Assembly: GCA_963742755.1 (NCBI GenBank)
Contig: CAVUMU010000011.1
Span: forward strand, 256,147 to 320,146
Origin: an uncultured Gemmatimonadales bacterium
GTDB lineage: Bacteria > Gemmatimonadota > Gemmatimonadetes > Gemmatimonadales > GWC2-71-9
Length of the DNA stretch: 64,000 nt
Direction of reading: 5' to 3'
Part shown: piece by piece, positions 1,854 through 45,296 of the stretch
Numbering within the stretch: position 1 is the stretch's first letter
Layout of the letters: every line of letters begins with the position of its first letter
Position numbers and translations under genes: made by a program
The notes under the pieces: generated by a model
What the model was told of the DNA's origin: nothing
The model's database searches: none
Seen by the model: only the letters and a program-made list of their open reading frames with translations

Positions 1854-3389
1854 CTAAAGCAACCCACTCCTGGCCGCCTGGGCTACGGCCGCAGCGCGGG
1901 AAGGCAGACCGGTCTTGGTCAAGATGTTCCCAACGTGGCGATGAATGGTGTGCTCACTGAGCCTGAGCCGGACGGCCGACTCCTTATCACTCAGACCCTG
2001 GGCCACCAGCCGGAGGACCTCGATCTCGCGCGGCGTGAGCCGGCCAAGCTTCGCCGCCGCGCCGATGGGTCCGTGAGGCTTGAGATCCAGCTCCTGAAGC
2101 AGGAGCCGCGCGGCCGCGGCGTGGCGGGCGGCCCCCAGCCGCTCGAAGGCGGTTCCCGCCGCCCGAAGCGCGATGGTCGCGGGATCGCGGCGGCTGAGCG
2201 CCAGGAGGGAGTGGGCCAACTGGAGCCGGGACCGGGCCGCCTCGAACGGTGTGCGATTACGCTCGAAGAGGTCGGCGCTCTCCTCCAATCGGGCGCAGGC
2301 TCCCCGATGATCTCCGCCCGCCGCGAGCAGACACCCCTCGGCATGGGCGACGGTGGCCTGAAGCGGCTCGGTGCCTACCGCGGCCGCGATGCTCCGGAGC
2401 TCGTCGAGAGGGACACCCGCCTGCTCCAGTTGGTGTTCCGCGACATGGGCCCGGGCCAAAACGTCCAACCCGGATACCCGCTCGGTCCGGTCAGTGGCCG
2501 GCACCCGCTGGAGATACTCCTCCGCGAGCACGGCTGCGGGGCCCGACTCGCCACGGTCGAGCGCCAGCGTGGCGCGGCCCAGCACGGCGAGATAGTGGCT
2601 CCCGGTCTCGGCCAGCAGCGCATCCGCTTCTTCCCAGCGGCCCTGCCGGCGCCGCAGGTCGGCCAGTCGGATCAATGCGATCGGCACGACCCGGGGCTGT
2701 ACCCGTTCCACGTGCCGGCGCAGCGCCTCGATCTCGCGCTCGGCCTCGGGCCACTCACCCCGGAGCGTGAGCAGGGAGGCGTACTGGATGCGGCAGGCGG
2801 AGAACAGGTGGGTGAACTTCCAGCGGCGGGCGAACTCCCGAACCCGCTCGCACCATTGGGCCGCGCGGTCGTAGTCGTGCACCTGTTCGCAGGCGCGGAT
2901 CAGGTAGCAGCAGGCGGTGCCAATCATGCCGGGGTCGGTGAGCTCGCCGGCGGTGGCGGCTGCGGTGGCCTCGTCCAGGCGGCTCATGCCCTCGGCGACG
3001 TCTCCTTCCGTCACCATCGCCAGGCCCTCGAGGGCCACGCCGAGCATCTCCATGTCGGCCGGTCCCACCGCCCGGGCGATGGTGGAGGCTTCCTGGCTCA
3101 GCCGCCGGGCGGCTACGGGGTCGCGCTGAGCCATCAGGGCGACGTGGGCCTTCTGATAGCAGAGGAGGGCGTGCTCGGGGGAGGGGGGCAGGCCGTCCAG
3201 GAGCCGCTCGGCGCGCTGGATCCAGCCGTTCGCGACGGCGCTTTCGCCCCGGAAATCGGCGTAGTCGTTGGAGAGCCAGATGGCGACGCGAGCCGCGGCC
3301 CGGGCGTCCTCCGCCTGCCGGAACAGGCGGTAGGCGCTCTCTCGGGCATCGATGCCGGTGGCGTAGTCTTCCAGCCACCAGCACGCCAT
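1854..3389 (-). CDS. LuxR/GerE-family HTH regulator with TPR-like N-terminal body
   Basis: 511-aa ORF. The C-terminus LTPREIEVLRLVAQGLSDKESAVRLRLSEHTIHRHVGNILTKTG is a LuxR-type HTH. The frame stays open upstream to 3656 without ATG/GTG/TTG, so the start is uncertain. Confidence 0.8.
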   Translation of the reverse strand: MACWWLEDYATGIDARESAYRLFRQAEDARAAARVAIWLSNDYADFRGESAVANGWIQRAERLLDGLPPSPEHALLCYQKAHVALMAQRDPVAARRLSQEASTIARAVGPADMEMLGVALEGLAMVTEGDVAEGMSRLDEATAAATAGELTDPGMIGTACCYLIRACEQVHDYDRAAQWCERVREFARRWKFTHLFSACRIQYASLLTLRGEWPEAEREIEALRRHVERVQPRVVPIALIRLADLRRRQGRWEEADALLAETGSHYLAVLGRATLALDRGESGPAAVLAEEYLQRVPATDRTERVSGLDVLARAHVAEHQLEQAGVPLDELRSIAAAVGTEPLQATVAHAEGCLLAAGGDHRGACARLEESADLFERNRTPFEAARSRLQLAHSLLALSRRDPATIALRAAGTAFERLGAARHAAAARLLLQELDLKPHGPIGAAAKLGRLTPREIEVLRLVAQGLSDKESAVRLRLSEHTIHRHVGNILTKTGLPSRAAAVAQAARSGLL

Positions 3390-4058: not shown

Positions 4059-6902
4059 TCACGGTGATTCTCTGGTCAGTTCGCCCAAACGCTTGCGGAC
4101 GTCGGCGACCTGCGGCTGGAGCACCGGGTCGGCATCGTGCCACAGCGCCACGAATTTCTGATACGACTCGACAGCACGCCCACGATCGTTTCTCGCCTCG
4201 TAGAGTTCGCCGACGCGCCGCAAAGCCGGGCCGAGACTATGACGGTCGACATAGAGTCGAAAGTTCCAGCTTGATTCAACGTACCGCTCGTACACCGCGA
4301 GCGCCGAGTCGGTGGCGCCGCTACGATCGAGAGATAGGGCCAGCTCGGGTAACCACGTGACGCCGCCATACGTAGCCGCCGCGCGTTGGAATCTCTCGCC
4401 TGCCTCCTCGTATTTCTGCTCGTGGAGCAGGAGAGTGCCGTAGAAACCGTTGCTGAGCATCCGGTAGTGAAGTCCGTTCATCATCCGCTGCCCGTTGGAT
4501 CCTACCGCACGAAGTTCCCCCTCGCCCTCCGAGAACACGGTCTTCGCCCGTTCAGGCTGAGCCGCCAGGGCGTATAGCATGGCCAGCTCTGGGAATGGAC
4601 GGTTGGTGACCTCGATGCCTCTATACCCTGGACTCGCTCGCAGGCTGTCGAGCCGCCGGACGACCCGGCTCCGGTCGAGGCCGTAGTGCAGCTCACTCCT
4701 TGCTTGAAGCAGAGCCCATCGTATTCGAGCCAGCCAGCTTCGATTGGCGTCGGATGGCATGCGGGCTAATCGTTGAGCTTCGCTCAGCCTGCCGCGAGTA
4801 CTCGCGACACTCGCGAGCCAAATAGCAGCCTCAGTCTGACCGGCGCTCCCCTGCGCGAGGTGACCCCGCCGAAAGGCCCGGGAGGCCGAGTCGTAGTCTT
4901 TCCGGGCGCTCGCCATCAAACCAACCTGCACCTCGTAAGCCCCTTTGGTGCCGAATCGTGATCGCCAGCGTGCCAGGGTTGTTTCCACTGCGGCGAAGTT
5001 TCCTAAGGTGACCTGAGCATCGACCAGGTTGGTATATGGCGCTTGCTGATTCGAGTCGGAGCGTATCGCTCGGGCGGCCAGCTCGGCTGCCGTCTCATAA
5101 TCATTCTCATACCAGGTGATCAGGCCGAGATTAGTAAGTGCGATGTTATCGTCGGGGTGGATGGCGAGCAGCGCCTGCCACGCCTGACGAGCCCTGGTGC
5201 GATCGGCCAGGACCCACTCGAAATACTGGGCCTCTGCCCCGTACCGCTCCCGCTCGGTGAGTCGATCACGCAGGGTATAGGCCTTCGTAAGCGCCTCCGC
5301 TTGCCGTGCCGGCTCACGGCCGGTGTTCCAAAGGTCAACCCCCATCGCTCTCCAGGCCATTGCGAAGGCGGTGTCGATGCTTATAGCCCGTTCGTAGAAT
5401 GGGATGGATTCCTCATAGCGCCCGAGATCTGATAAACGAGCGCCCTGCGAGTACCACTTCAGCGCGGCCAGGGACCCGGTGGTGACTGCCTCGAGCGGTG
5501 GTCCGGCGCGCACTCCGCGGAGCGACTCTCCAATGGCGCGACGAAGGTTGCGAGACAATCGGTCGACGGTGGGAATGATCTCCCGCGCGCTAAAGGCCGT
5601 CTCGCGGTGAGCAGCCAACACCTGTCCGCTGTCCGCCCCGATGACCTGGGCGGAGATCATGTACCCATCTCCCAGTCGAGTCACCTCACCGGAAAGCACG
5701 GCCTTCAGTCCCGCACGAAGCGCTACCTCGCGCCCCAGGGACAGCGTTAACCGGGTAGTGTCGGGACGTCCCATCAGCCGCAGGGTCTGAAGCACCCGGT
5801 CAGGACTGGCGAGCCTGACCAACCGCGACTGGGCGAAATCCACGCGGAAGGCCTCGGTAACGGCGCCAGTGAGGGAACTATCACTCGCCCGGTCGACGAA
5901 TTCGCTGAGGACGAGTTGGTCTCGAGGAGCCAAAGCGCCTTCCGCCACCAGTGACCTCTCACCCACAAAGCCCGCCCGTCGAAGCCCGAGGTAACCAGCG
6001 GGCACCAGTAGAGCGGCTGCCAGCAGTGGAACCAGTAAGCGGCGGCGGCGAGTCGGTATCGGTTGCGCACCTGCAGCCAGGCAGTCGGCAAATTCGCTGA
6101 CCGTGGAAAATCGGTCGGCGGCGGCCGTCGCCAGTGCTCGATCTATAGCGGCCACAATGTGAGGTGGCACCCCTCTTCGGACTATGCTCAGGCTGGGTGG
6201 CGGGGCGGCCAGACGCTTGGCGATGATCGCCTGGGGTGTCGGGCCGGTGAACGGCGGTTCGCCGGCGAGCATTTCATACAGGACGCAGCCCAGGCTGTAG
6301 ATGTCCGAGCGCGCGTCGAGATCGGGGGAGCCGGTGGCCTGCTCGGGGCTCATGTAAGCCGGGGTTCCCACGGCGAGTCCGGTTTCCGTTAGGCGTTCTT
6401 CTTCATTGCCCAGTGCCCGCGCGATCCCGAAGTCGGCAACGAGGGTATTCCCATCCTGGGTGAGCAGAAGGTTTTCCGGCTTGATATCGCGGTGAATGAC
6501 TCCATGTTCGTGGGCATAGCGTAGAGCTTGCGCCGCCTCTCGGGTAATCCGCAGTGCCTCCTCCAGCGGGAGCTGATGGTCACGGGTGAGCCGGTCCCGC
6601 AGGCTTTTCCCCTCGACATATGGCATCGTGAACCAGAGCCGCCCGGCAGTTTCGCCCGAGTCATGAACCGACAGGATGTGAGGGTGCTGCAGCCGGGCTG
6701 CCGTCTTGATCTCGCGAAGGAATCGTTCTGGACCAAGGATGGCGGCCAGTGATTGGTGCAAAACCTTGAACGCAACCGGCCGGTCGTGGCGGAGGTCGTG
6801 GGCCAGGTATACGATGGCCATGCCTCCATGCCCGAGCTCGCGCTCGATCACGTAGCGGTCGCGTAGGGCGTCTGCCAGTTGGGAAGCTGTCCCGTGCATC
6901 AT
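4059..6902 (-). CDS. Ser/Thr protein kinase with TM segment and C-terminal TPR-like repeats
   Basis: ORF track 4059..7265. Kinase motifs start just after the internal MM at 6902 (YVIERELGHGGMAIVYLAHD, HRDIKPENLL, DFGIA, MSPEQ). A hydrophobic LLVPLLAAALLVPAGYL is followed by a long helical-repeat tail. GC is visibly lower than in the neighbours. Confidence 0.85.
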   Translation of the reverse strand: MMHGTASQLADALRDRYVIERELGHGGMAIVYLAHDLRHDRPVAFKVLHQSLAAILGPERFLREIKTAARLQHPHILSVHDSGETAGRLWFTMPYVEGKSLRDRLTRDHQLPLEEALRITREAAQALRYAHEHGVIHRDIKPENLLLTQDGNTLVADFGIARALGNEEERLTETGLAVGTPAYMSPEQATGSPDLDARSDIYSLGCVLYEMLAGEPPFTGPTPQAIIAKRLAAPPPSLSIVRRGVPPHIVAAIDRALATAAADRFSTVSEFADCLAAGAQPIPTRRRRLLVPLLAAALLVPAGYLGLRRAGFVGERSLVAEGALAPRDQLVLSEFVDRASDSSLTGAVTEAFRVDFAQSRLVRLASPDRVLQTLRLMGRPDTTRLTLSLGREVALRAGLKAVLSGEVTRLGDGYMISAQVIGADSGQVLAAHRETAFSAREIIPTVDRLSRNLRRAIGESLRGVRAGPPLEAVTTGSLAALKWYSQGARLSDLGRYEESIPFYERAISIDTAFAMAWRAMGVDLWNTGREPARQAEALTKAYTLRDRLTERERYGAEAQYFEWVLADRTRARQAWQALLAIHPDDNIALTNLGLITWYENDYETAAELAARAIRSDSNQQAPYTNLVDAQVTLGNFAAVETTLARWRSRFGTKGAYEVQVGLMASARKDYDSASRAFRRGHLAQGSAGQTEAAIWLASVASTRGRLSEAQRLARMPSDANRSWLARIRWALLQARSELHYGLDRSRVVRRLDSLRASPGYRGIEVTNRPFPELAMLYALAAQPERAKTVFSEGEGELRAVGSNGQRMMNGLHYRMLSNGFYGTLLLHEQKYEEAGERFQRAAATYGGVTWLPELALSLDRSGATDSALAVYERYVESSWNFRLYVDRHSLGPALRRVGELYEARNDRGRAVESYQKFVALWHDADPVLQPQVADVRKRLGELTRESP

Positions 6903-36888: not shown

Positions 36889-38740
36889 TCAGCCGCCGTT
36901 GGCCATGAGGAAATGCATCTCCAGCGCGTTGGCGACGGCGTAGTTCGCGTGATTGTTGTTGAACATGATGTGGATCCGCCGGGCGTCGCCCTCGATCCGC
37001 TCCAGCAGCCGCCGCCATGCTTCCAGCTCATCCTGCTCGTAGAGATACCGGTAGCGCTCGGTGACCACCTCGTTTCGCGCTTCCCAGGTGGACTGCCGCC
37101 GTCCGTGCAGCCTTATCATCGCCAGGTCGGGATTGGTCACCCTCAGCCTGGCCGGCAGGCTGCTCTCCATGCCCGGGGGTGCATCTACCGCCACATAGCT
37201 GAAGCCCAGGTCGCTCAGCAATCGAAATGTGCGCGGCGCGATCCGGGTCGACAGCCAGTCGCGATGCCGGAGCTCGACCGATGCCGGCCAGTCACCCAGC
37301 CGAGCCCGCGCCTCGGCCAACCAGCGGGCGCTCTCCCGGGTAGGTTTGAACCAGCGGGGAAACTGGAGCATGATCGCGCCCAGCTTGCCCGCTTCTTTCA
37401 GCGGCCTCAGAGCCGCGAGAAAGCGACGCCATACCTCGTCGATGGCCGCTCGGGAAAAGTGTCGGGTGTACACGTTAGGGGCCGAGCGAAGCGGGCGGGG
37501 AAGGTCCTTCCTGAGCCAGTTTGGCAGCCGCATGGGCTGAGTGGGATGCCCCGTCATCAACCCGTGCGCCTTGATGTCGAATTTGAAGTGCGGCGGCGTC
37601 CGCTCCACCCAGAGCCGGGCGGTGTGCTCCGAGGGCAGGGTGTAGTAGGTGGAATCCACCTCGACCAGCGGCAAGCGGCTGGCGTAATAGCGAAGCCTAT
37701 CCTCTGCGGTGGTCGCCCCCGGCGGGTAGAACACGCCTGGCGCCAGCAGCGAGGGATCGGTCCAGCCCGCCACCCCGATGGAGATGGCGCTGCCGCGCCG
37801 ATCGATTACCGATGCCGTGTTTCCCCTCACTGCCTCAGCCCGCCGCCGAGCTTCACGCCACCCTGGGTCGTGGACCGGGTGCCAGCACGTCTCATCCGGT
37901 GATTTTGGAGATGTCGCGGGTTCGATTGCGTCGAGCTCGGCGGGCAGGGGAGCGGGCGACCGGTGCGCTTGGGCCAACATCGCCGCTACCCGGTGGGGCG
38001 CCTCTCGGGCCAGCGGAGCGATGAGCCGCGCCTCGGGAAGGTTGCGCCAGTAACGAGCCGGCATCTCGGTCCGCATCATGGTGCGATTGAGCCGGGCGGG
38101 ATTGAACGTCGCGGCATAGTAGGTCCGCCACAGGTCTTCCAGCCCGTCCGCTGTCGCGGGAACCTGATGGCGCGCGATGCCGGTTGCCAGGTTCAGGGTG
38201 TTTCCGTCCCATCGGGCGCAGCCTTCGGGGGTCAGGATGGCCCAGCGCATCGAGCGGAAGCGATTCACGAAGAACGGCGCGGTGCGCTCCACCACCCGGT
38301 GCGCCGGTTCGAACCAGGCGACGTACTCCGGATCTTCTCCATCCCCCTTGGGAGCAGCCCGAAACCGGACGAAGGCTTTCATCTTGTGGCTGGCCCGGCG
38401 CACCGCCCGGTGCATCTGGCTCAGCTCATGGACCAGCATATCCGACGCCACCTGCAACAAGTACGGCTCCTCGTGCGTCAGCCGCCACAATAGCTGGTAC
38501 AGGAGCGACCAGCGAGAGCCGTCACGGTGGCAGGCCACGCTGGGCGGCCAAGTGGAGAAAACGGCGGGGGACCCGGTGCCGCGCGGTAGTGTCACCCTGC
38601 TCGTCAATCAGTTTTCCCAGGAGGCCCGTCGCTCCACCATCCTCATGCCAGGTGACCTCCTCCGGCGCAAGATTCTGAGCCAGACAGTTTCGGGCCGCGG
38701 CGCGCCACCGGGCGAGAGCCTCCGGCACCTGACCGACCAT
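36889..38740 (-). pseudogene. DUF4130-like (partner of the DNA-repair radical SAM) fused to DUF72, frame broken near 38539
   Basis: The N-terminus is in ORF 38522..38845 from ATG 38740 (MVGQVPEALARWRAAARNCLAQNLAPEEVTWHED...RVPRRFLHLAAQ). It continues in ORF 36889..38607 (VACHRDGSRWSLLYQLLWRLTHEEPYLL...KAFVRF...WFEP...FNPARLN). The DUF72 part follows (IGVAGWTDP...FYP...LRYYASRLPLVEVDSTYYTLP...LQFPRWF...ELRHRDW...HIMFNNNHANYAVANA). Deleting 1 nt gives LAAQVACHRD. Confidence 0.7.
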
Positions 38741-38744
38741 AGGG

Positions 38745-40019
38745 CTACAGCTCGCCATTAAAGGCAGACACCGCGGCGGAGGACCAGAGGTCGAGCTGGG
38801 CCCGCCCGCGCAGCCGCTGCTCCAGGCTGGGCGAGTCGGGGCCACCCGGCCCAGGAGTGTAGTCCGCGGTCATGACGAAGGGCCTCGCTCGCGACAATGC
38901 CACCCGCAGCCGGGCCAGATCCTCTATCCGCAAGCTCCGCCACCGCCGCGCGGCCAGGATTCGCTTGACGCTGCGCACCCCGATACCCGGAATCCGGAGC
39001 AGCTCTTCTTTGGTTCCGGTGTTGACGTCCACCGGAAATTGTCCCCTATTGCGCAGCGCCCATGCCAGCTTGGGGTCGAGCTCCAGCTCCAGGTTGGGGG
39101 CCTGGGCGGTGATAAGCTCCGCCACCCCGAAGCCGTAGAAGCGCATCAGCCAGTCGGCCTGATAAAGCCGGTGCTCCCGAAGCAATGGCGGCGCGGCGAG
39201 CGGTAGCACGCAGGACGCGTCGGGAATGGGACTGAACGCCGAGTAGTACACCCGCCTCAGGCGCTGTTCGGCGTAAAGCGTGGCGGAGGTCTCGAGCAGC
39301 ACTGCGTCGGTGGCATCGGTGGCCCCGACGATCATCTGGGTGGCCTGTCCTGCGGGAGAAAAGGCGAGCGGCTTGCGCGAGTAGGAGGAGCGCTCGAGCC
39401 GGGCCCGGTCTTCCTGGGCCTCCAGGATCCCTTCCCGGATGGTGTTCATGCCCCGAGTGATCTGGACCAGCTCCTTCTCTGGAGCCAGCGCGTCGAGATC
39501 CTGCTGCCGGGGCAGCTCCACGTTGATGCTGAGCCGGTCGGCCCAGCGGCCCGCCTCGCGGATCAGCTCCGGCGCGGCGTTGGGGATGGTCTTGAGGTGG
39601 ATGTATCCGGCGAAGCCATGGTCGCGGCGGAGCGTACGCGTCACCGTCACCAGCTGCTCCATGGTGTAATCGGGACTTCGGATGATGCCGGAGCTGAGGA
39701 AAAGCCCTTCTATATAGTTGCGGCGGTAGAAATCGAGGGTCAGGCGAACTACTTCGTCGGGGGTGAACCGGGCTCGCCGAACTCCGCTGGACCGGCGGTT
39801 GATGCAGTAGCCGCAGTCGTAGATGCAGTAGTTGGTGAGCAGAATCTTGAGCAGCGAGACGCAGCGGCCGTCGGGGGTATAGCTGTGACAGATTCCGCTG
39901 CCTTCGGTCGATCCGATTCCGCTACCCGTGGCCCGGCGGCCTTTGGCGCCGCTGCTGGCGCAGGAGGCATCGTACTTGGCCGCGTCGGCCAGGACTGCCA
40001 GTTTGTCGGAAAGCTCCAT
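38745..40019 (-). CDS. Radical SAM protein of the putative DNA modification/repair class
   Basis: The CX3CX2C cluster motif is LTNYCIYDCGYCINR. The N-terminus is DAAKYDASCASSG. The C-terminal helix-hairpin-helix is GTKEELLRIPGIGVRSVKRILAARR. Confidence 0.85.
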   Translation of the reverse strand: MELSDKLAVLADAAKYDASCASSGAKGRRATGSGIGSTEGSGICHSYTPDGRCVSLLKILLTNYCIYDCGYCINRRSSGVRRARFTPDEVVRLTLDFYRRNYIEGLFLSSGIIRSPDYTMEQLVTVTRTLRRDHGFAGYIHLKTIPNAAPELIREAGRWADRLSINVELPRQQDLDALAPEKELVQITRGMNTIREGILEAQEDRARLERSSYSRKPLAFSPAGQATQMIVGATDATDAVLLETSATLYAEQRLRRVYYSAFSPIPDASCVLPLAAPPLLREHRLYQADWLMRFYGFGVAELITAQAPNLELELDPKLAWALRNRGQFPVDVNTGTKEELLRIPGIGVRSVKRILAARRWRSLRIEDLARLRVALSRARPFVMTADYTPGPGGPDSPSLEQRLRGRAQLDLWSSAAVSAFNGEL

Positions 40020-40845
40020 ACCCGAACATAACCCGAATCAGCAGGGCGACGCAAACGCGATCGCACCGGCCACGGCCGCACCCGGTTCGACCGCTGCACA
40101 GGCTTCCCGGAGCAATGCCGCAACCCTGCGGGGGCGGCTGGCGATTCCGGTCCCCGGAGCGGGTCATGAGTGACTTCGCACGCTCGAACTGCAGGGTGAG
40201 GTGCTGCACGAACCACGGTGCGGCCAGCCGTCCGGCCTCTTCCAGCGTGCCGGGCTCCTCGAAGAGATGGCTCGCTCCCGGGATCTCGACCAACCGTGCC
40301 AGGCAGGTGAGCTGGACCAGGGCCATCTGGTTGAACCCAAGCACGATCGGATCACGGCTCCCGACCAGCAGCAGGGTGGGAGCGCGAACCCGGCGCAGCG
40401 CGTTGCCGGCCAAGTCCGGCCTTCCGCCGCGTGACACCACCGCAGCAATGTGGAGCGGGGATACCGCCGCGGCTTTCAGCGCAGCGGCCGCCCCGGTGCT
40501 GGCTCCGAAGTAACCGAAGCGAAGCCCGGCGGCCTCGGGCTGCCGACCAAGCCACCCCCTCGCCGCGAGTAGTCGCTCGCTCAGAAGTTCGATATCGAAC
40601 ACGTTGGTGCGGTCGGCGGCTTCCGCCTCGGTGAGCAGATCGAACAGCAGGGTGCCCAGCTCCGCGGCACGGAGCTGCCTCGCGACGGCGACGTTCCGCG
40701 GGCTCAGCCGGCTGCTCCCGCTGCCATGGACGAGGAGCACCAGACCCGAGGGATGGCTGGGGAGGGCAAGGCTGGCCTGCATGCGAGCCGAGCCCGCCGT
40801 GATTACTACATCCCGCTGAGTCGGCCGGCTGGTGGTTTCCGTCAT
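39922..40845 (-). CDS. Dienelactone-hydrolase-like alpha/beta hydrolase with an aberrant C-terminal tail
   Basis: LVLLVHGSGSSRLSPRN, YFGASTGAAAAL (nucleophile elbow) and IPGASHLFEEPG. After WFVQHL, about 95 Arg/Gly/Cys-rich residues run 98 nt into the next gene. ATGA overlap with the PRTase gene. Confidence 0.7.
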   Translation of the reverse strand: MTETTSRPTQRDVVITAGSARMQASLALPSHPSGLVLLVHGSGSSRLSPRNVAVARQLRAAELGTLLFDLLTEAEAADRTNVFDIELLSERLLAARGWLGRQPEAAGLRFGYFGASTGAAAALKAAAVSPLHIAAVVSRGGRPDLAGNALRRVRAPTLLLVGSRDPIVLGFNQMALVQLTCLARLVEIPGASHLFEEPGTLEEAGRLAAPWFVQHLTLQFERAKSLMTRSGDRNRQPPPQGCGIAPGSLCSGRTGCGRGRCDRVCVALLIRVMFGYGAFRQTGSPGRRGQVRCLLRQQRRQRPPGHG

Positions 40846-41489
40846 GCGGATACCCTCCTGGACCCGGTCGAGCGGAGGCACTGGATGACCTCCGCGTCTG
40901 TGGTAGGGGAGAAGTTGCGATACCAATTGCCGACCGCGCCGAAGTGCAGCGGGCAATCCAGGCAGACCACCGCATCGGCGACCCGTTCCAGTTCCGCCGC
41001 ACCTTCAGCCGAGCAGACCGGGGCGGCAAAGACGATCTGCTTCGGATGGCGCCTACGGACGGACTCGACCGCGGCTTGAGCGGTGGCGCCGGCGGCCAGG
41101 CCGTCGTCCACCAGGATGACGGTCCGCCCCTTTACCTCGATTGGGGGGCGGTTGCCCCGATACGCCCGTTCACGCCGGGCCATTTCGTCGGCCTCGCGGA
41201 CGATGACTCGCGCCAGATAATCCTGTGAGATTCCCAGGCCGGCTACCAGCTCCTGGCGAAGCAACGTCGCTCCGGGCGCCATCGCACCGATGGCAAACTC
41301 CTCGGTGCCGGGCGCACCGAGCTTTCGAACCAACTGCACATCGAGCGGTGCGTCCAGCGCTCGCGCGACCTCATGGCCGACCACGACTCCACCCCGGGCA
41401 AGGCCGAGGACGATGGGGTTCTTCCCCCGATATTGCTCCAACGCCTGAGCCAGCCTCTTGCCCGCGTGGTGACGATCGTCAAAGAGCAT
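40842..41489 (-). CDS. Phosphoribosyltransferase-domain protein
   Basis: GGAGG sits 5 nt before ATG 41489. MLFDDRHHAGKRLAQAL...IVLGLARGGVVVGHEVA and the PRPP loop VILVDDGLAAGATA are present. Confidence 0.85.
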   Translation of the reverse strand: MLFDDRHHAGKRLAQALEQYRGKNPIVLGLARGGVVVGHEVARALDAPLDVQLVRKLGAPGTEEFAIGAMAPGATLLRQELVAGLGISQDYLARVIVREADEMARRERAYRGNRPPIEVKGRTVILVDDGLAAGATAQAAVESVRRRHPKQIVFAAPVCSAEGAAELERVADAVVCLDCPLHFGAVGNWYRNFSPTTDAEVIQCLRSTGSRRVSA

Positions 41490-44282: not shown

Positions 44283-45296
44283 CTAAGCCAGCAGGACCTG
44301 GTCCACCGATCGCCTGGGCGTGTGCCGCTTTTCGGGACACATCGCGTAACCAATCCGGAGGAACTGCTGCGGCACCCATCCACTCGCCGGAATAACCCGC
44401 CCCAGCTCCGCCCGCAGAGATGGGATCTCCAGCGCTTGGCTCATCGGCTGCAGGGCGAGACCTATGCCGGTGGCATGCAGCCACAGGCGCTCCAGAGCCT
44501 GGCCGGTGCGGATCTGAGAAACTCGGTCATCGGTCCGAGTGCTGATCAGGCCGACCAACGGGGCGCTCGACAAAAGGGCGGCGTTCCGTCTCCCGATTAC
44601 TCGACCCAGATTCAATCGTGTCAGCAGGAAGCCAGTCAGCCGCGACGGAAGGCGAGGGGTCCCGAAAACTCCTTGTCTCACCCAGTGCCCCAGTTCGTTC
44701 CGGAACGCCGGGTCTGCGAATTCCATTTCATCGGCATGCAGATTCAGCTCGACCACTCGGAACCGGATCGCTGGATCGTCTAGCAGATCCACTCGCAGTC
44801 CGGGGGCGGTGCAGCGGTCCAGGAGATGTTGCCGCACTTCGCTCGCCACCGGCTCGTCGCGGTAGAGTCCATGGTGGGTACGCCGAGCCGTAATCGCGCC
44901 GAGAGCAAGCCCGCTCCGGTCAGGCGGTGCCTGGGCACCATCCGGATGGAAGGTGACAGTTGCCGCGAGCTCCTCATTCGTGGATTGGGGGAAGTAACTG
45001 ACCTCCGCACGGAACCCGAACTGCTCACCTGCGAGAAGCATATTCTCCAGCGCGCAGCCCAGGCTGATGTAGAGCTCCCGCCGCCCCCGGTCCGCCACCT
45101 GCTGCCACCGAGTCAGGTCGGCGAATACGCCGATTGTGTTCTCGCCGATCGAAAACCGCCACGGCTGGGTGTTCTTGGTCGAGGGCGCCAGCACCGCATA
45201 GCGGAGCAGAAACTCGAGCTGCTTCTGCATGGGGAATATCGCAGGGAATTGGTGGGGCGAGACCTCCCAGGGTGAAGGCGTGCTCAATGTGGTCAT
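44283..45296 (-). CDS. Acg-family nitroreductase-fold protein
   Basis: 337 aa, double nitroreductase-like fold. LEFLLRYAVLAPSTKNTQPWRF...LGCALENMLLA...GQALERLWLHATGIGLALQPMSQ resembles Acg/Rv3131-type proteins. Confidence 0.8.
   Translation of the reverse strand: MTTLSTPSPWEVSPHQFPAIFPMQKQLEFLLRYAVLAPSTKNTQPWRFSIGENTIGVFADLTRWQQVADRGRRELYISLGCALENMLLAGEQFGFRAEVSYFPQSTNEELAATVTFHPDGAQAPPDRSGLALGAITARRTHHGLYRDEPVASEVRQHLLDRCTAPGLRVDLLDDPAIRFRVVELNLHADEMEFADPAFRNELGHWVRQGVFGTPRLPSRLTGFLLTRLNLGRVIGRRNAALLSSAPLVGLISTRTDDRVSQIRTGQALERLWLHATGIGLALQPMSQALEIPSLRAELGRVIPASGWVPQQFLRIGYAMCPEKRHTPRRSVDQVLLA

Follow-up and report, generated by a model that had tools for sequence, protein, structure and literature searches.

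Why is a DUF72 domain joined, in Gemmatimonadales, to the protein that accompanies a radical S-adenosylmethionine (radical-SAM) enzyme of the TIGR03916 family? DUF72 (YecE/YunF/TM1631) is a large and widespread family of TIM-barrel proteins, with members from Escherichia coli and from Bacillus subtilis and three crystal structures, which has no assigned function and has stayed unexplained for more than 20 years. The question is raised by a 64,000-nucleotide stretch of contig CAVUMU010000011.1, from an uncultured Gemmatimonadales bacterium (hereafter the window; positions refer to it unless another locus is named), whose minus strand carries a two-gene unit made of a radical-SAM gene followed by a gene for a DUF4130::DUF72 fusion protein (Table 1). 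We estimate at about 70% the probability that, in this soil Gemmatimonadota bacterium, the two genes serve as a repair module induced by DNA damage (SOS), in which DUF72 plays a lesion-processing role. On the best reading of the sequences, the locus would be the Gemmatimonadota variant of a known SOS-regulated operon combining a radical-SAM enzyme with a uracil-DNA glycosylase (UDG), the UdgX-type domain of that operon having been replaced by DUF72.

Domain composition of the two proteins

The product of the upstream gene matches TIGR03916 with 562.2 bits (cut-off 343.5) over residues 3-406 (profile positions 1-398 of 415), and its translation contains both the CX3CX2C motif (CIYDCGYC) and the C-terminal helix-hairpin-helix (HhH; LLRIPGIGVRSVKRIL) that had led a preliminary description of this DNA to the same family. 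The corresponding Pfam matches (Radical_SAM, 29.3 bits; HHH_3, E = 2.8e-4) are each slightly under the gathering score. The adjacent TIGR03915 partner gene that is typical of the TIGR03916 family is present as well, with its ATG at 38740, at a distance of 4 nucleotides (nt) from the stop codon of the radical-SAM gene.

As assembled, this second gene is divided by a frame break, to which we return below, into two open reading frames (ORFs), 38522..38845 and 36889..38607. The latter ORF matches TIGR03915 (1.7e-54, 185 bits), PF13566 (7e-39, 133.6 bits) and DUF72 (PF01904; 3.7e-56, 191 bits against a cut-off of 25.3, profile positions 1-215 of 217), while the repaired protein of 616 amino acids (aa) reaches 203.3 bits with TIGR03915 (cut-off 112.25, profile positions 6-243). 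Both halves thus score above cut-off, in agreement with the earlier proposal that DUF4130 is fused here to a complete DUF72 domain. Scans with hidden Markov models (HMMs) returned no UDG domain (PF03167, TIGR03914 or TIGR00758) in the fusion protein.

An AlphaFold2 model of the whole fusion protein has a predicted local distance difference test (pLDDT) score of 85, with values of ~85-97 over residues 1-190, and the DUF72 domain modelled alone reaches a pLDDT of 87 and a predicted template-modelling score (pTM) of 0.88. The linker between the two domains ends in a conserved segment (HDPG..AR.RA), with which the stand-alone DUF72 members of this subfamily begin and whose HDPG is nearly invariant in fusion and stand-alone proteins alike. 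By sequence, the DUF72 domain matches the PDB entries 1VPY/1ZTV (4e-32) and 1VPQ (3e-22); by structure, Foldseek aligned the DUF72 half with 1ZTV, 1VPY and 1VPQ at E 1e-18 to 1e-21 and target-normalised TM-scores of 0.80-0.85, and returned no PDB neighbour for the DUF4130 half.

The domain shares with known family members (E. coli YecE; Thermotoga maritima TM1631, 1VPQ; Enterococcus faecalis EF0366, 1VPY/1ZTV) a full PF01904 match, the same fold, and the conserved charged residues, which are kept at E360, D362, K390, Q459, E489, R491, D519, H545, N594 and N595. However, the crystallised members are stand-alone proteins, whereas the domain studied here is the C-terminal part of a DUF4130 protein with predicted SOS control, and its subfamily is distinguished by an additional HDPG segment at the N-terminus and by a ~50-aa insertion after strand 3.

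Table 1. Positions of the genes, domains and predicted control elements in the window
Feature	Position	Strand	Remarks
Radical-SAM gene	38745..40019	-	424 aa; TIGR03916; upstream gene of the pair
Fusion gene, TIGR03915 (DUF4130)::DUF72	36889..38740	-	616 aa after removal of one base
DUF4130/TIGR03915 domain	38029..38719	-	residues 8-237 of the repaired protein; TIGR03915 203 bits
Linker	37729..38028	-	~100 aa, variable, mostly low confidence; pLDDT 50-75 over residues 200-290
DUF72 TIM-barrel domain	36913..37728	-	PF01904 191 bits; PDB and Foldseek matches
Frame break	38542..38544	-	one extra C in a CCC run; alignment to 16 relatives
Putative LexA (SOS) box	40022..40037	-	TTCGGGTTATGTTCGG, TTCGG-N6-TTCGG direct repeat; 2 nt before the radical-SAM ATG
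Predicted sigma-70-type promoter	40025..40054	-	read from the sequence and from a layout conserved across loci

Conservation of the operon and of the fusion

The order radical-SAM gene then fusion gene recurs in the ~23 Gemmatimonadales loci for which upstream DNA is available, with radical-SAM genes 63-79% identical to the window copy. Clustering of the ORFs of 27 loci recovered just these two genes and their antisense shadow ORFs, with no third conserved gene, and the flanks vary; the conserved unit therefore consists of the radical-SAM gene and the fusion gene.

The preliminary description regarded the fusion as unusual, which turned out not to be the case. A search with the repaired protein gave 2709 matches at E <= 1e-10, and the best 120 of them (90%-identity clusters) align over the full length at 50-67% identity and all carry PF13566 and PF01904. 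The fusion is also present in 25 metagenome-assembled genomes of Gemmatimonadales/Gemmatimonadota (contigs from one genome per species), where the radical-SAM gene lies immediately 5' of the fusion gene wherever upstream DNA exists, with the single exception of locus L018. The fusion is the standard form in Gemmatimonadales and hence typical of an order, across which the module is conserved at 46-79% identity. Common as it is, it is annotated only under generic NCBI-type names ('TIGR03915 family putative DNA repair protein', assigned to Gemmatimonadaceae or Gemmatimonadales, or 'probable DNA metabolism protein').

The partner usually found behind DUF4130 is a different one. A search with the DUF4130 half among 1.84 billion proteins yielded 1849 representatives (50%-identity clusters), the best 150 of which were classified by length, by a motif test, by a local DUF72 HMM, and by a Pfam sample of 10 proteins. 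About 60 of these 150 are short stand-alone DUF4130 proteins, judging by their length; 49, of ~480 aa, were flagged as UDG-like by the motif test; 8 are DUF72 fusions according to the local HMM; and 33 are unclassified, several of them ~480 aa long and with UDG in two of the three sampled. The Pfam scan found a UDG domain (PF03167) in five of five DUF4130 proteins of ~480-580 aa, and the Caulobacter protein P0125, used as a control, matches TIGR03914 ('UdgX family uracil-DNA binding protein') with 312.9 bits. These results confirm that the usual C-terminal partner of DUF4130 is a UDG of the family-4/UdgX type, as had been suggested, and by these domain assignments most other lineages carry a predicted UdgX-type glycosylase domain where Gemmatimonadales have DUF72. 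UdgX of Mycobacterium smegmatis is a family-4-like UDG which cross-links to an abasic site; the UdgX-family domain (TIGR03914) and the DUF72 domain of the window occupy the same, presumably lesion-handling, position after DUF4130, but are unrelated in sequence and in fold.

There is, in addition, a second type of fusion (P0150, P0160 and P0216), in which the DUF4130 halves are 44-53% identical to that of the window and the DUF72 domains 28-31% identical; for stand-alone DUF72 proteins from Gemmatimonadaceae and Chloroflexota, the identity to the window DUF72 half is ~50%. The P0216 gene comes immediately after a radical-SAM gene with 66% identity to that of the window and has the same box upstream (see below). 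As two DUF72 subfamilies are found in one and the same position, the 'Rosetta-stone' evidence is stronger than a single fusion would provide. The two types arose either through two independent fusions or through one fusion followed by a domain replacement. In locus L201, which carries a type-2 fusion, a 107-aa ORF ('MRYPTTPDGRYFVVRNRLWRC...', locus positions 4372-4695) is located just 5' of the box and the radical-SAM gene.

An operator-like box conserved upstream of the operon

Alignment of the DNA 5' of radical-SAM start codons uncovered the invariant direct repeat TTCGG-N6-TTCGG, of which TTCGGGTTATGTTCGG is the sole perfect match in the 64-kb window. In L201 and 23 related loci, an exact copy is found 5' of the radical-SAM gene or, in the case of L018, of the fusion gene. 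Altogether, the 921 kb made up of the window and the related loci contain 25 exact boxes, 24 of them at the operon position, where ~2 would be expected by chance according to an estimate from base composition. The inner positions of the box, which were left free in the search, are conserved too (T8 in 25 of 25 sites, A9 and T10 in 21 of 25 each).

The box overlaps what appears to be the promoter. In the window, a -35-like TTGCGT (40054..40049) is separated by an 18-nt spacer from a -10-like TATGTT (40030..40025), which is inside the box and is followed by the ATG 5 nt downstream. The same layout (TTGCnn, ~17 nt, TAnnTT, with the box ending 1-3 nt before the start codon) recurs in 14 related loci, and in L201 the box TTCGGCGTTTCTTCGG is flanked by TTGCAT and TATCCT. 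A strict sigma-70 consensus scan detected no promoter at the operon, so the promoter is deduced from its conservation across loci. This arrangement suggests a leaderless transcript, with an operator that would cover both the -10 element and the start site.

Three less regular sites were noted. In L013, ~130 nt of opposed tandem arrays (GAGCTATG... / ...CTCATAGC; locus positions 4574-4723) separate the SOS box from the radical-SAM start; these arrays look like a small repeat element or like an insertion into the leader that can form a hairpin. In the window, a relative of the box with two mismatches (TTCGGGTTCCGTGCGG) is present at 45005-45020 on the minus strand, which is within chance (0.53 matches expected). 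Finally, the Gemmatimonadota loci L065 and L068 carry TTCTGGTATTGTTCCG and TTCGCGTATTGTTCCG, with 2 mismatches each, 34 nt 5' of stand-alone DUF72 genes; given their promoter-like distance, these degenerate boxes may be weak operators, or they may be chance matches.

Association of the box with SOS genes

Metagenome contigs were scanned for TTCGGNTTATNTTCGG, which returned 80 loci. About 69 of them are chance or unrelated matches, mostly in low-GC DNA, and the other 11 carry the motif just 5' of SOS-type or radical-SAM genes. Nine of these 11 loci are high-GC (0.60-0.71), L131 and L108 being lower. The genes downstream of the motif are recA in L123 (TIGR02012, 545 bits), lexA in L131 and L108 (TIGR00498, 177 and 171 bits), imuA in L112 (a weak match), a gene for an imuB-like Y-family polymerase in L083 (Pol IV-family models, under cut-offs), genes for dnaE2-type polymerases in L135 and L134 (error-prone polymerase model), genes for SplB-like radical-SAM enzymes of the Rv2578c/PA0069 type in L092, L128 and L129 (NF038135 and NF033668, under cut-offs), and a TIGR03916-like radical-SAM gene in L109 (284 bits, under cut-off). 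Such a set of predicted genes, lexA included, is the signature of a LexA regulon. The presence of recA, lexA, imuA, imuB-like and dnaE2 genes downstream of TTCGG-N6-TTCGG makes it very probable that this repeat is a LexA (SOS) box.

LexA motifs built as direct repeats with the same 11-bp period are already known, for instance GTTC-N7-GTTC in Alphaproteobacteria, and SOS regulation of the UDG/radical-SAM operon (COG1573-COG4277) has been reported for Bacteroidetes, Verrucomicrobia and Alphaproteobacteria (PMC8565304, PMC9578287). The operon of the window resembles that operon (TIGR03916 with TIGR03915-TIGR03914; COG4277-COG1573) in its radical-SAM/HhH enzyme, in DUF4130, in its tight two-gene organisation, and in an operator shared with SOS genes, but differs from it in having a DUF72 barrel instead of the UdgX-type domain and in the sequence of the operator. 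Similarly, SplB-like enzymes (spore photoproduct lyase; COG1533) are radical-SAM enzymes acting on DNA damage, and the three SplB-like genes mentioned above have the same box as the window operon; they belong, however, to another radical-SAM family and lack a DUF4130 or DUF72 partner.

In L108, an ORF of 621 aa joins the LexA protein (TIGR00498 match over residues 2-198) to a C-terminal region resembling DNA/RNA methyltransferases. The motif of this locus is on the minus strand (locus positions 2997-3012), 15 nt before the start of the ORF, in the context TTGACT-TTCGGTTTATTTTCGG-GTATAGT.

Proposed function of the module

How could such a module work? LexA would bind TTCGG-N6-TTCGG over the -10 element and the start site, keeping the operon off until DNA damage triggers LexA cleavage. 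The operon would then yield the radical-SAM/HhH enzyme and its DUF4130 partner protein. Computational work has connected DUF4130 with SplB-like radical-SAM enzymes, UDG and SOS networks (PMC3765255); in another computational study it was predicted to bind nucleic acid as a non-catalytic, RecJ/DHH-like module and to form a confident complex with the radical-SAM enzyme in an AlphaFold3 model, with an ipSAE of 0.80 (bioRxiv 10.64898/2026.08.19.745780). In the module proposed here, DUF4130 would dock on the radical-SAM enzyme and help to hold single-stranded nucleic acid. The DUF72 barrel, carried on a flexible linker where most bacteria have the UdgX-type domain, might perform a hydrolytic step on the same presumed lesion (incision of the strand or excision of the damaged residue), after or alongside the radical chemistry of its partner.

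As DUF72 takes the place of the UDG-like end of an SOS-type operon partner, a DNA-repair role for this domain is indicated. The preliminary description had suggested that DUF72 acts on DNA in the pathway of the radical-SAM enzyme, and this view is strengthened by the conserved operon, by the second fusion type and by the SOS box. A nuclease role for DUF72 has already been predicted in print, in both cases computationally: Tm1631 as an endonuclease-IV-like enzyme binding DNA lesions (PMC3828134, PMC4939058), and DUF72 genes, described as UVDE-like, as enriched near damage-inducible polB2 operons (PMC11791011). Among the papers searched, we found none that ties DUF72 to radical-SAM enzymes. That DUF72 is a DNA-lesion-processing enzyme, standing in for the UdgX-type glycosylase on the substrate or the product of the TIGR03916 enzyme, is put forward tentatively, as a possibility to which we would give somewhat less than even odds.

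If this is true, the Gemmatimonadota fusions would be the 'Rosetta stone' that assigns the DUF72 family to DNA repair. The fusion, its two DUF72 subfamilies and the shared operator together form the strongest contextual link so far between DUF72 and DNA repair, and they provide a concrete and testable functional lead, namely the reconstituted pair acting on damaged DNA. TTCGG-N6-TTCGG would likewise be a LexA box of Gemmatimonadota and of some other lineages; our literature search found no published LexA motif for Gemmatimonadota, and the operator motif opens the SOS regulon of this phylum to comparative analysis. To a specialist of SOS networks, in whose regulons the radical-SAM/DUF4130 pair recurs with its chemistry unexplained, the module will come as no surprise; what is new is an apparently undescribed LexA box and the lead for DUF72.

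Several observations weigh against a lesion-repair module. To our knowledge, no biochemical activity has been established for TIGR03916, DUF4130 or DUF72. Neither endonuclease IV nor UVDE was among the top 50 Foldseek PDB hits, whether with the whole-protein or with the domain-only model, and a PDB profile search with the DUF72 domain returned DUF72 entries only. Among 54 loci with stand-alone DUF72 genes (~50% identity), there was no repair-gene neighbour and no SOS box above background, and the synteny observed was lineage-specific only, which weakens any general claim that DUF72 proteins are repair proteins. Neither lexA nor recA was found in the window or in the related loci, so that the link with the SOS response comes from the metagenome motif scan, and LexA as the protein binding the box is a prediction from sequence. 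Neither component is strictly obligatory, since L035 has a stand-alone 276-aa DUF4130 protein without DUF72, and in L018 (4757-6629), a locus that lacks a radical-SAM gene, the SOS box lies directly 5' of the fusion gene. Lastly, the window copy is frameshifted as assembled.

The structural comparisons, then, recovered the DUF72 structures and not the two endonucleases. The remaining Foldseek matches are weak and to TIM barrels in general; several (E 1e-3 to 1e-2, TM-score <=0.5) are to other xylose-isomerase-like barrels (epimerases, rhamnose isomerase, MbnB), in the superfamily of endonuclease IV and UVDE, to which the published predictions cited above liken DUF72. The conserved DUF72 residues show no evident trinuclear metal motif rich in His. 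We thus make no claim that the domain is a member of the endonuclease IV/UVDE group, which neither search recovered.

These same structural matches bear on an alternative function. Instead of repairing lesions, the module might modify a base in DNA or RNA, or clean up damaged nucleotides, with DUF72 being a hydrolase of small molecules or nucleotides that is merely co-regulated with the radical-SAM enzyme. A role in thymine modification and mutagenesis was suggested by Aravind and colleagues, Foldseek places sugar epimerases, sugar isomerases and glycosidases nearest to DUF72 among characterised folds, and stand-alone DUF72 genes do occur outside any repair context. However, the operon shares its operator with recA, lexA and imuA-imuB-dnaE2, the domain that DUF72 replaces is a relative of DNA glycosylases in other lineages, and the HhH of the radical-SAM enzyme is a DNA-binding motif, which makes a modification or clean-up function unlikely.

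Nature of the frame break

Should the window copy then be regarded as a pseudogene, with a real frameshift and a module decaying in this organism? From the ATG, the fusion gene runs for ~70 codons up to a premature TGA (38531..38529), and the +1 frame goes on as ORF 36889..38607. The preliminary description had placed a break near 38539, and alignment confirmed it: at the junction, where the 16 relatives have LAxSVACHRD, the sequence of the window is 'ttg gcc gcc C agc gtg', the extra C belonging to the run 38544..38542. The adjacent DLH-like ORF, with its odd tail of ~100 aa (see below), might be taken as a sign of further damage in the region.

DNA nearly identical to that of the window was found, at very low depth, in four soil-metagenome runs of one study. 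Two short-read contigs from two independent soil samples, X3 (38347-38591) and X4 (38511-38662), lack one base (placed at 38546) and have T instead of G at 38552; these are their only two differences from the window, they lie 7 nt apart, and the frame is restored exactly here, as 'RRFLQLAPSVACHRD'. Elsewhere, contigs that overlap these or neighbour them agree with the window, save for a single substitution in one X2 contig. A pair of differences clustered in this way, in DNA that is identical elsewhere, is typical of a local consensus error; the frame break is most likely a consensus error of the assembly or a private variant, and is probably not a biological feature of the gene. Programmed frameshifting was also considered and rejected, as the frame is continuous in the relatives and in the short reads.

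Apart from the break, both halves of the protein are 50-67% identical to their relatives and show no other lesion, and the operator is perfect. Decay of the module in this organism is thus quite improbable. Overall, the family assignments and the fusion given in the preliminary description stand and its link to DNA is strengthened; the rarity of the fusion does not hold, and the frame break is probably no biological feature.

Flanking genes and genomic location

An anti-phage defence or mobile-element function could be imagined from the differing genomic positions of the operon in relatives and from the radical-SAM enzymes included in some defence systems, but it is very improbable given that neither protein has a PADLOC match, that no integrase or mobile-element gene is conserved nearby, and that the operon is vertically conserved across Gemmatimonadales and under SOS-type control.

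In the window, PRTase and DLH-like genes are located upstream of the operon on the same strand, as previously noted. We rejected them as members of the system, since no homologue of either is found in any of 80 related loci. They are unrelated neighbours, and the operon has a predicted promoter and a putative operator of its own. The DLH-like ORF (39922-40956, minus strand) ends in a tail rich in R, G and C (39922-40220), ~100 aa beyond the usual end of the fold ('...APWFVQHL'), which shares 98 nt with the radical-SAM gene and also overlaps the SOS box. Either another indel has removed its stop codon, or the ORF is extended too far. The four soil-metagenome runs have no reads over this tail and the promoter region.

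Loci L035 (1167-3268), L006 and L010 belong to one sub-clade in which the operon directly follows nusG; in L035, rplK-rplA-rplJ-rplL come after the DUF4130 gene.

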